A stretch of 64,000 nucleotides of DNA from Candidatus Binatia bacterium (GTDB taxonomy: Bacteria > Vulcanimicrobiota > Vulcanimicrobiia > Vulcanimicrobiales > Vulcanimicrobiaceae): NCBI GenBank assembly GCA_035604635.1, contig DATNIC010000003.1, positions 22,028-86,027 on the forward strand. The letters run 5' to 3'. Shown here piece by piece: positions 23,571-25,580 of the stretch. Made by a program: the position numbers and the translations under genes. The notes beneath the pieces are model-generated. The model was not told the DNA's origin and did not search any database. It saw only the letters and a program-made list of their open reading frames with translations. Every line of letters starts with the position of its first letter. Position 1 is the stretch's first letter.

Positions 23571-23678
23571 CTTACGGCCCCCCCTCGGGGTATCGTGCCT
23601 CGATGAAACGTTAGCGGGGCCGATGGTTCGGGGGCCCCACGCAAAGCGTGGGGGGCGCGTAGCCTGGGGCGGAGCGCC
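23571..23678 (+). repeat. Structured GC-rich intergenic repeat, copy B (immediately 5' of gyrB)
   Basis: CTTACGGCCCCCCCTCGGGG...GGGGCCG...GGGGGCCCCACGCAAAGCGTGGGGGGCGCGTAGCCTGGGGCGGAGCGCC, then ACAAAA-ATG (gyrB). Confidence 0.9.
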
Positions 23679-23684
23679 ACAAAA

Positions 23685-25580
23685 ATGAACGATTACACTG
23701 GCGAACAGATCGAAGTTTTACGCGGCCTCGAAGCGGTGCGCAAGCGCCCGGGCATGTATATCGGCAATACGGCCGAGCGGGGCTTGCATCAACTGGTCTA
23801 CGAAGCCGTCGACAATTCCGTCGACGAGGCGCTCGCCGGCTATGCGACCGCGATCCGCGTCGTCCTCTACAAGGACGGGGCGTGCAGCGTCGAGGACAAC
23901 GGTCGCGGCATCCCGGTCGACATGCACGCCGAAGAGAGGATGCCCTCGGTCGAGGTCGTGATGACGATGCTGCACGCCGGCGCGAAATTTGGCAAAGGCG
24001 GCTACAAGGTCGCGGGCGGCTTACACGGCGTCGGAATCTCGGTCGTGAACGCGCTCTCCGAAGCGATGATCACGCGCGTGAAGCGTGACGGGTTCGAGTA
24101 CGAGATCAAATTCTCGCGCGGCGAGACCACCCGCAAGCTCAAGAAGCTCGGCCCGGCTGAGGGGACCGGGACCTATCAGTGGTTCAAGCCCGATATGGAA
24201 GTCTTCGAGACCAACGACTTCCATTGGGACGTCCTGCAAAAGCGCCTGCGTGAGCTGGCGTTCCTCAACCGCGGTTTGGCAATCACGTTGCGTGACGAGC
24301 GCCCCGAAGAGCCCAGAGAACGCACGTACCAATACGACGGCGGGATCGTCAGCTTCGTCGAGCATCTCAACGACAAGAAGGATCCGATCCATCCGATCAT
24401 CTCGTCTCACGGCGAACGCGACGGCGTCGACGTCGAGTGCGCGATGCAGTGGGCCGACACGTACACCGAGACGGTCTTCTCCTACGCGAACAACATCAAC
24501 ACGATAGAAGGCGGGATGCATCTGCTCGGCTTCCGGACCGCGATCGGCAACGAGGTGAACGCCTATGCGCGCAAGCGCGGGATGCTCAAGGAATCCGACG
24601 GCAATCTCTCGGTCGACGACTGCATGGAAGGCTTGACGGCGGTCATCTCGGTCAAGCTGCAAGAGCCGCAATTCGAGGGCCAAACGAAGACCAAGCTCGG
24701 CAACGCGCGGGTCCGCAGCATCGTCTACGGCCTGATCAACGAGCGGCTCGAGTTCTTCTTCGAAGAGAATCCCAAGTATGCGCGTGCTATCGTCGACAAG
24801 TGCATGCAGGCAGCGAGGGCCCGCGAGGCCGCCAAGAAAGCGCGCGATCTGGCGCGCCGCAAGAACGCGCTCGACGGCAGCGGCTTGCCCGGCAAGCTGG
24901 TCGACTGCAAGAACCAGGATCCCAAGGCGAGCGAGCTGTTCTTGGTCGAGGGCGACTCGGCCGGCGGGACGGCCAAGGGCGGCCGCGATCCGAACACCCA
25001 AGCGATCCTGCCTTTGCGCGGGAAGATCCTCAACGTCGAGAAGGCCCGCCTGGACAAGGTGCTCTCGAACGAAGAGATTCGCACGATGATCACGGCGCTC
25101 GGAACTGGATTCGGCGACGAGTTCAACGCCGAGAAGCTGCGCTACCACAAGATCATCATCATGACCGACGCCGACGTCGACGGATCGCACATCCGCACGC
25201 TGCTGTTGACGTTCTTCTACCGGCAGATGCATCAGCTGATCGAATCGGGCTTCGTATATATCGCGCAGCCGCCGCTCTACGGGATCAAGCGCGGCAAGTC
25301 GCAGTGGTATGCGTTCAGCGACGACGAGCTCAAGAAGATCTTCGGGGACCGTGATCCCAAAGATTTCACGGTGCAGCAGTACAAGGGTTTGGGCGAGATG
25401 GACGCCGAGCAGTTGGCGGAGACGACGATGGAGGCCGGCTCGCGCCGTCTCAAGCGAGTCATGCTCGAAGACGCGGTGGCGGCGGATGAGATGTTCACGA
25501 CGCTCATGGGCGACAAGGTCGAACCGCGCAAAGAATTCATCCAAACCTACGCGCGCAGCGTCAAGAACCTCGACCTTTAG
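23685..25580 (+). CDS. gyrB: DNA gyrase subunit B
   Basis: ORF 631 aa. GHKL ATPase ([17 protein letters not shown]), Toprim (EGDSAGG), [19 protein letters not shown]. Confidence 0.97.

Follow-up and report, generated by a model that had tools for sequence, protein, structure and literature searches.

The 64-kb stretch of contig DATNIC010000003.1 analysed here (the window, meaning the whole stretch of DNA) contains six copies, c1 to c6, of a repeated element of about 113 nucleotides (nt) that is followed by an A/T spacer of 5-6 nt. Repeat finding, pattern searches with 0 chance matches expected and a covariance-model search revealed no further copy in the window. In five of the six copies, the 3′ tail reads ...G[G/T]AGCGCC and leads through 5-6 A/T-rich nt into a start codon, and a Pfam check identified the genes behind these five copies as those of a ParA-like ATPase, GyrB, an LptB-like ABC ATPase, YbaB and FtsW/RodA. 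An earlier note on this DNA had claimed that five of the six copies end 5-6 nt before the starts of unrelated core genes and that their last GGAG lies 9-10 nt upstream of the initiation codon. Both claims were borne out in the window, the former by the spacers together with the Pfam check.

The copy in front of gyrB (c2, plus strand, 23566-23684, type A, 83.7 bits) lies between dciA (TAA 23558-23560) and gyrB (ATG 23685). Its 5′ domain (23575-23622) is closed by helix P1, in which CGGCCCC at 23575-23581 pairs with GGGGCCG at 23616-23622 and encloses CCCUCGGGG and a variable hairpin. Hairpin P2 follows at 23635-23653 as CCCCACGC-AAA-GCGUGGGG, and hairpin P3 at 23654-23678 as GGCGC-GUA-GCC-UGG-GGC-GGA-GCGCC, with the GGAG at 23671-23674. 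The A-rich spacer ACAAAA and the ATG of gyrB complete this junction (23679-23687). Copy c1 occupies 9999-10117 on the minus strand (86.9 bits) and passes through TTAAAA into the TTG of the ParA-like gene (9998-9996). The remaining copies are on the plus strand. Copy c3 (43726-43904, 34.6 bits) has an LptC-like gene upstream and continues through TTTCA into the ATG of the LptB-like ABC ATPase gene at 43905. Copy c5 (55874-55992, 84.8 bits) lies downstream of dnaX (TAA 55861-55863) and joins the ybaB start (ATG 55993) through GTCAGA, and copy c6 (63671-63788, 84 bits), with the tail variant GTAG, joins the rodA/ftsW start (ATG 63789) through TTAAA. Copy c4 (50583-50700, 86 bits) is situated between convergent genes. 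It begins 1 nt past the stop of a glycosyltransferase gene (TAA 50580-50582), the convergent open reading frame (ORF) of 588 amino acids has its stop (50697-50699) inside the A/T spacer of c4, and no start is present downstream.

Every copy, in the window and elsewhere, consists of three parts, namely a 5′ domain that occurs in forms A, B and C, the 8-bp hairpin P2 with the consensus CCCCAYGC-RAA-GCRUGGGG, and hairpin P3 with the consensus GGCGC-GNA-GCC-UGG-GGC-GNA-GCGCC, including a G-N-A/G-N-A internal loop. About 51 copies are of type A, about 41 of type B and 5-6 of type C, and all six window copies carry the type A domain. Type C is a circular permutation of type B: in the type C copies (loci L005, L018, L051, L073, L094 and L065:6180-6246), strand GUUGCGAGGCC precedes AUGGUGAUGGGCCGAGC, whereas type B has the opposite order, and P2-P3 is unchanged. 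The helix formed by the two strands can be drawn with tandem G-A/A-G mismatches. The GGAG sits within P3, where it is made up of the GNA of the symmetric internal loop and the first G of the closing stem. The earlier description of two hairpins located 5′ of the GGAG thus had to be revised to three structured domains with the GGAG inside the last hairpin. The second base of this motif varies, with GGAG in 81, GAAG in 11, GTAG in 6 and GCAG in 4 of 102 copies. At its 3′ edge, the element contributes GGAGCGCC and a spacer with the consensus KTYARA, followed by a start codon that is joined without a gap to the gene.

Compensatory changes back every helix, P1, P2 and P3. In the RNAalifold alignment of 48 type A copies, the pairs of P1 show two-sided changes in 3-26 sequences, for instance GC in 18, AU in 16 and CG in 10 at columns 21/66. 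Over 92 copies, pairing is maintained in 99.7% of cells, two-sided changes occur in 44 cells compared with 9.2 in shuffles, and the observed covariation score was reached by 0 of 500 shuffles. One pair of P2 was free to vary under the search pattern; this pair is C-G in 64, U-A in 27 and A-U in 1 of the 92 copies and is unpaired in none. Compensation in P3 affects the outer stem (C-G to U-A in 6 copies) as well as the inner stem (GCC/GGC to GCU/AGC or GGC/GCC), and P3 is highly conserved across families although the search did not select for it. When folded alone, P2 and P3 have energies of -16 and -13.8 kcal/mol, respectively, with the same P3 fold and with the spacer and AUG unpaired, and whole-element folds reach -66 to -69 kcal/mol for 151 nt.

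A gathering search of the window against Rfam returned 0 hits, and permissive searches (E up to 10) of type A and type B copies gave a best E of 0.27. By-eye comparison with hammerhead, twister and kink-turn (k-turn) motifs showed that AUGAUGAUGG and GUGAUGG resemble CUGAUGA. Both lack the invariant C3 and A9 as well as the required helices, and on this by-eye comparison these ribozymes and the k-turn were rejected. No promoter or terminator was found within the element, nor a terminator-like T run. Sites of the sigma-70 promoter type were absent from copies c4-c6, in a phylum whose promoters may not follow the sigma-70 consensus.

For the counts across the family, one genome per species was scanned with an exact pattern of the central hairpin P2, which yielded at least 101 stretches. 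Among the matches listed, the repeat family is specific to Eremiobacterota (Vulcanimicrobiota, WPS-2): all but four stretches are labelled Eremiobacterota/Vulcanimicrobiota, carry related names, or belong to metagenome-assembled genomes labelled 'uncultured bacterium'. The four outliers (Aminicenantes, Polyangiaceae, Elusimicrobia and one more locus) have the hairpin alone in common and score 32-40 bits, compared with 60-88 bits for real copies. A covariance model gave 118 hits in 732 kb of carrier loci. In 60 of the 102 evaluable copies beyond the window, from about 40 Eremiobacterota genomes, a start-like codon stands 4-8 nt past the tail and opens a coding-like ORF of at least 60 codons. 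The distance from tail to start in these 60 start-associated copies is 6 nt in 47 and 5 nt in 9, and the chance of such a start at a random position is roughly 0.1-0.2%, a figure that we estimated without computation. Among copies matched by the model alone and not by the exact pattern, 9 of 13 likewise lie 4-8 nt before a long ORF. The positional pattern claimed for the window therefore holds across the phylum.

The genes behind the copies are heterogeneous and include rpmJ, sufU, atpC, fabZ, a small gene after ctaE and sugar nucleotidyltransferase genes. On the other side, the stop codon of a co-directional upstream gene is mostly found between about -8 and +17 nt from the 5′ edge, and both edges of the element lie tight against genes. 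Copies are kept almost solely at gene boundaries, mostly at co-directional junctions that overlap or nearly abut in relatives (ATGA, TGATG, TAATG, GTGA). Those that are not start-associated fall into three groups: copies before genes with their own Shine-Dalgarno sequence 18-34 nt further on, copies abutting a convergent stop, and inverted copies. Where a copy faces a convergent gene (window 50695-50700; L033, L045, L047, L074, L073), the A/T spacer contains, or is immediately followed by, the stop of that gene (TTA on the strand of the element), at or close to the usual position of the ATG.

The earlier note had left two accounts of this pattern side by side, insertion in front of start codons and a shared leader. 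At the gyrB junction, the comparison covered 80 metagenomic sequences related to the GyrB N-terminus at 75-92% identity, each with the same dciA-like gene upstream. The element is absent from this junction in 78 of the 80. In the closest relative (92% amino acid identity), an ATGA is shared by the stop of dciA and the start of gyrB, and many others have TAATG or TGATG. L142 (1440-1496) carries a divergent copy of another subfamily, and L175 (1464-1503) retains only a tail remnant (ggccgggggcggagcgccgttagaTTG), which supplies a TTG start. An unrelated palindromic insertion of about 110 nt, ending in AGGAGGGTCTGATTTA / TAAATCAGACCCTCCT, is found upstream of gyrB in L132.

Six further orthologous junctions occur both empty and filled. 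The lpxC-fabZ junction is empty in the window (GTGA overlap) and filled in L072, and the junction of the lptC-like gene with lptB is empty in L065 (ATGA overlap) and filled by c3 in the window. Between sufS and sufU, the element is missing from L024 and present in L036 and L048; between atpD and atpC, it is missing from L020 (8-nt overlap), L058 and L098 and present in L095. The junction of a purB/purC-like pair is empty in L009 and filled in L003 and L091, and that of a ruvC-like gene is empty in the window and in L065 (TGATG overlap) and filled in L031. Copies at the junction after ctaE have the sense orientation in L055, L050 and L086, whereas those of L028 (263-322) and L046 (3792-3851) are inverted, with a tail that touches the upstream stop and GCAG in the place of GGAG. 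The empty gyrB junctions, the six filled and empty pairs and the opposite orientations at one junction together indicate that the element behaves as mobile or formerly mobile. It is an insertion at tightly packed gene junctions and not a conserved leader. Of the two earlier accounts, insertion is thus supported, and the shared leader is not supported, given the missing conservation before orthologous genes, the roughly 40% of copies that are not at starts and the lack of an Rfam family. The proposed target also needs correction: the insertion point is not an A/T-rich spacer but the start codon itself, and the element seems to carry the A/T spacer and the new start along with it. Insertion at the start codon appears to leave an ATG at the 5′ edge of the element.

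As to the mode of movement, no terminal inverted repeats are present, since on inspection the ends of the element are not reverse complements of each other. Some junctions are suggestive of a target-site duplication, namely ACAAAAA and ATGAAC at gyrB, ATGAA at lptB, AATGAAAG in L099 and a drifted AATGGCTAA at atpC. These cases were set aside, as there is no overall excess over random pairing. Having neither terminal inverted repeats nor a target-site duplication of fixed length, the element does not resemble a miniature inverted-repeat transposable element derived from a DDE transposon. Because neither terminal inverted repeats nor target duplications were found, our guess is that insertion might take place 3′ of the ATG by a single-strand mechanism of the HUH/IS200-IS605 kind. 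The ATG at the 5′ edge, which is also present in the inverted and non-translated L028 copy, is compatible with insertion of the IS200/IS605 or RAYT-mobilised type without being specific to it. A search with orphan 5′ or 3′ halves for an autonomous copy was too noisy and turned up only more diverged copies. Integron attC sites, imperfect palindromes with a terminal GTTRRRY that separate promoterless cassettes beside an integrase, were likewise considered: some spacers, such as GTTAGAT, fit GTTRRRY by chance. They were rejected because the flanking genes are core genes around an oriC-type region and not cassettes.

The ATG at the 5′ edge stands at -65 or -64 from P2 in 52 of 90 copies (~58%), and in 20 of the 46 cases with a co-directional upstream gene ending close by, the stop of that gene overlaps it (TAATG or TGATG in 15, ATGA in 5), which is the signature expected of a coupled start codon. 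Among the 36 start-associated copies with a 5′ ATG, the frame that it opens, here termed the relay frame, crosses the entire element without interruption in 33. In 30 of the 36, its stop codon falls between -5 and +1 relative to the true start, as an ATGA overlap in 12 and as TAA or TAG at -4 in another 12. Random re-pairing of 5′ and 3′ halves gave an expectation of 53%, and 0 of 20,000 permutations reached the observed value (p<5e-5). After orthologues had been collapsed, the stop of the relay frame matched in 24 of 25 cases compared with 58% expected, and again 0 of 20,000 permutations were as high. The relay frame is fused in frame to the gene in only 1 of 33 copies.

Among the 14 copies of the frame class that needs ATGA, 12 have A as the fourth base of the gene, and a stop in the spacer compensates in the remaining two. 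In the other frame class, the fourth base is A in 2 of 11 copies. Since the fourth base belongs to the host gene, its association with the relay frame cannot be inherited with the repeat, which implies that selection acts on the position at which translation begun at the 5′ ATG terminates. Of the new copies that were matched by the model alone and have an ATG at the 5′ edge, 3 of 4 fit the relay pattern, as does c3 in the window. Taken together, the relay-frame statistics indicate translational coupling of the downstream gene, so far as sequence comparison can reveal it. The relay frame is thus a putative second route to translation of the downstream gene, beyond the account given in the earlier note.

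Four window copies possess a relay frame. That of c1 runs on the minus strand from TTG 10117 to TAA 10003-10001 (38 codons) and stops 2 nt before the start of the ParA-like gene. In c3, the frame extends from ATG 43726, which overlaps the stop of the LptC-like gene (ATGA), to TGA 43906-43908, which overlaps the lptB ATG (ATGA), and comprises 60 codons. The 40-codon frame of c5 starts at ATG 55874, 5 nt after a perfect AGGAG (55864-55868), and ends at TGA 55994-55996 in an ATGA overlap with ybaB. In c6, 38 codons lead from ATG 63671 to TAA 63785-63787, 1 nt before the rodA ATG. The gyrB copy c2 has no start codon at its 5′ edge and hence no relay frame. The P3 loop of c3 (window 43822-43880) contains an insertion of about 56 nt, across which the relay frame is open; hairpin-rich P3-loop insertions of 56-70 nt were observed in two copies, c3 and L086 (about 6386-6510, minus strand). 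A conserved peptide was rejected, as the frame in which P2-P3 is read depends on whether the ATG stands at -64 or at -65, and as conservation is absent from the variable region.

The GGAG had been regarded as the Shine-Dalgarno sequence of the downstream genes, which remains plausible from its placement. It is kept in 52 of 60 start-associated copies compared with 29 of 42 others (p=0.045), a weak support for a motif that is moreover partly sequestered in P3. The start position is occupied by CTG, ATC or ATA in 12 of the 60 start-associated copies and by GTG in 1. CTG was observed in L008, L009, L011, L019, L026, L029, L030, L079 and L087, and ATC in L027, L044, L052 and L074:5941-6000. Orthologues can differ in this respect, with ATG in L077 compared with CTG in L009 and L011, and ATG in L076 compared with ATC in L044. 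Reinitiation was considered as the cause of the CUG and AUC starts but is not supported, because non-ATG starts are more frequent where the relay frame is absent (15/32) than where it is present (5/31).

Combined, these observations lead us to favour, with moderate confidence, mobile or formerly mobile non-autonomous repeats of Eremiobacterota that land at start codons, rebuild them and, in most operonic copies, couple the neighbouring genes through the relay frame. Insertion at a start codon would leave an ATG at the 5′ edge, often still overlapping the stop of the upstream gene. Ribosomes finishing the upstream gene, or using a Shine-Dalgarno sequence embedded in it, would start at this ATG and translate a peptide of about 39 codons without conserved sequence through the hairpins, melting them. 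Termination would follow no more than a few nt away from the true start, where the ribosomes would initiate anew with the aid of the GGAG 10 nt upstream. Where the 5′ start codon is missing, as in the gyrB copy, translation would have to rely on direct initiation at the GGAG and the unpaired A/T spacer.

Several observations weigh against this account. The family-wide sample of at least 101 stretches was ascertained with the exact P2 pattern, and about 40% of the copies are not beside a start. About 40% of copies, including the gyrB copy, lack a 5′ ATG, so that the relay cannot be the general mechanism. Stop codons are depleted from the variable region in type A only (2 stops compared with 12 and 7 in the other frames), and the frame of many type B copies is cut short by about 20 nt through a TAG in the P3 loop. 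Retention of GGAG is only marginally higher at starts, to the same extent with or without a relay. With regard to mobility, target-site duplications are not enriched, the longest words shared by the flanks being distributed as in random pairings, and about 1 Mb of loci turned up neither an autonomous copy nor a transposase, including a RAYT or TnpA partner. The window copies share no recent-looking identity in their variable parts and so give no sign of current mobility. Three peat RNA runs yielded scattered low-depth contigs only; one contig with a copy from another locus may reflect transcription or DNA carry-over.

An alternative is a purely selfish repeat acting at the DNA level, whose hairpins serve only transposition or recombination, for which starts are the sole sites in a compact genome that tolerate an insertion with a ribosome-binding site and ATG, and whose relay frame and GGAG do no more than avoid harm. 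Such a repeat is consistent with the copies located elsewhere (at convergent stops, inverted, or before genes with a Shine-Dalgarno sequence of their own), with the variable second base of the GGAG, and with a 5′ ATG that is nearly as common off starts (16/34) as at starts (36/56). The GC(G/A)AAGC loop also recalls the very stable d(GCGAAGC) DNA mini-hairpin. However, the match of the relay frame to the fourth base or to a spacer stop arises only if translation from the 5′ ATG has fitness consequences, the frame is open more often in start-associated copies (51/58) than in others (22/37, p=0.002), and P3 is conserved without having been selected for, all of which makes this explanation rather unlikely in our view. 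A more far-reaching version of the preferred insertion account would join start-codon homing, co-option as a coupling enforcer and a new RNA motif. Here, insertion 3′ of the ATG may follow a single-strand or RNA-mediated route, the stable hairpins may block independent initiation such that essential genes like parA, lptB, ybaB and rodA are translated only with the upstream cistron, and the 5′ domain, conserved and open to circular permutation, may represent a novel RNA motif for protein recognition or catalysis. That all of these apply jointly seems distinctly unlikely.

The structural data could also be read as those of an RNA processing or stability module, in which a 3′ stabiliser, a nuclease site or a self-cleaving permuted 5′ domain splits operon transcripts and gives the downstream mRNA a defined, structured 5′ end. 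The place within operons resembles that of REP elements (repetitive extragenic palindromes) and bacterial interspersed mosaic elements (BIME) of E. coli, the folds are very stable, and hammerhead and twister ribozymes typically occur in circularly permuted forms, a relation that also holds between types B and C. Such a module leaves the frame statistics unexplained, though, and the lack of an Rfam ribozyme match, of a terminator-like T run and of promoter-like sites in the element further argues against it; we consider it very unlikely. For a cis-regulatory leader (riboswitch-like, a thermosensor or a protein switch) that co-regulates replication, segregation, envelope and division genes by masking or freeing the Shine-Dalgarno sequence in P3, one may cite the covariation in three domains, the conserved unpaired nucleotides and the circularly permuted 5′ domain as traits of functional RNA, as well as a GGAG partly sequestered in the -13.8 kcal/mol hairpin next to an unpaired spacer and AUG. 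Its absence before gyrB in most relatives and from six other orthologous junctions, the heterogeneity of the genes, the inverted and convergent copies and the poor Rfam scores largely refute a leader as the primary explanation, which is highly improbable.

Known systems offer several parallels to the insertion of repeats at start codons. Mycobacterial interspersed repetitive units (MIRUs) are actinobacterial units of 46-101 bp without dyad symmetry, which often form tandem arrays, the basis of variable-number tandem repeat typing. MIRUs are described as lying in operons, oriented with the flanking genes, and appearing to insert at start codons (Supply et al. 1997, as summarised in PMC12548453); their small ORF ends in coupling to the displaced gene, with a spacing of -4, an arrangement presumed to render the insertion harmless (PMC12548453). 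The Eremiobacterota element shows the same coupling behaviour at both junctions (5′ overlaps in 20/46, 3′ stops in 30/36), and it shares with MIRUs the location at operon junctions in gene orientation, an internal ORF abutting both genes and presence or absence at orthologous starts. It is set apart by its length of about 115 nt, its almost always single occurrence (tandem in L050), its three covarying hairpins and its GGAG, and no similarity to MIRUs at the sequence level would be expected. Single copies, three hairpins and an Eremiobacterota host make it an analogue of MIRUs and not a member.

The closest match to the description in the earlier note is Neisseria REP2 (CREN), which, like the inverted repeat of Borrelia plasmids, lacks terminal inverted repeats, contains two internal stem-loops and lies immediately before ORFs, to which it lends a ribosome-binding site and ATG (PMC3184786). 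The Eremiobacterota element likewise provides a ribosome-binding site and ATG and has internal stem-loops without terminal inverted repeats. In contrast, REP2 carries a promoter and acts as the 5′ untranslated region of contact-induced genes, whereas the Eremiobacterota copies are mostly operon-internal, lack a recognisable promoter (c4-c6) and possess a relay frame to the upstream gene. REP/BIME elements (mobilised by RAYT) and palindrome-associated elements derived from IS200/IS605 resemble our element in their GC-rich hairpins, the absence of terminal inverted repeats and target duplications, the intercistronic location and a constant short motif at the 5′ flank, which in the Eremiobacterota element is ATG. 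REPs differ in being single palindromes of 20-40 nt, often in inverted clusters, with no fixed relation to starts. Rickettsia palindromic elements (RPE), like some other repeats, are fused in frame with genes (PMC3184786) and provide another case of a palindromic repeat that owes its tolerance to being translated. RPE lie inside the coding sequence and join the protein, whereas the Eremiobacterota relay is a separate mini-cistron that is hardly ever fused in frame. Our search of the literature on repeats in Eremiobacterota found no paper. The Eremiobacterota repeat is a new family and a structural variant of a rare, already described kind of element, combining the behaviours of MIRU and REP2.

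The repeat explains why core genes in this uncultured phylum follow the same 115 bases, and in annotation the stretch is better treated as a repeat with a mini-cistron than as a regulon signal or a hypothetical protein. It also represents a second, independent and structurally very different case of the MIRU strategy, by which relayed coupling lets a repeat persist at starts, suggesting that this strategy may be general in compact, operon-rich genomes. Comparative data alone here lend strong statistical support to the translation of a non-conserved intercistronic frame. The family provides dozens of natural variants on which the rules of termination-reinitiation could be tried, among them ATGA overlaps, a TAA at position -4, and CUG or AUC starts where AUG is usual. 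Its presence/absence pattern could mark strains or lineages of peat and soil Eremiobacterota.

Some copies are themselves repeated. Whole copies stand in tandem in L050:1101-1289, and the 3′ tail and spacer are doubled (GAGCGCC plus spacer twice) in L004:6195-6301 and in the tails of L012 and L017; these may be footprints of repeated insertion or recombination. In the peat metagenome run X1, contigs break at the element (window bins 9567-10133 and 24876-25442), and word depth in bins with copies or conserved gyrB segments is 9-20x background, consistent with many copies in the community.

The genomic surroundings of the window copies comprise a replication-origin-like gene order at about 9000-25600, with the ParA-like gene on the minus strand and the genes for DciA (PF05258) and GyrB on the plus strand. 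ORFs upstream of dciA are candidates for dnaA, dnaN and recF by position only. All six copies are directed away from this region and are thus co-directional with both transcription and presumed replication, so that the two influences are inseparable within the window. Upstream of the rodA copy, two adjoining MinD/ParA-like paralogues are found at 61587-63240 (repeat families D5 and D6), with segments that are 74-88% identical.

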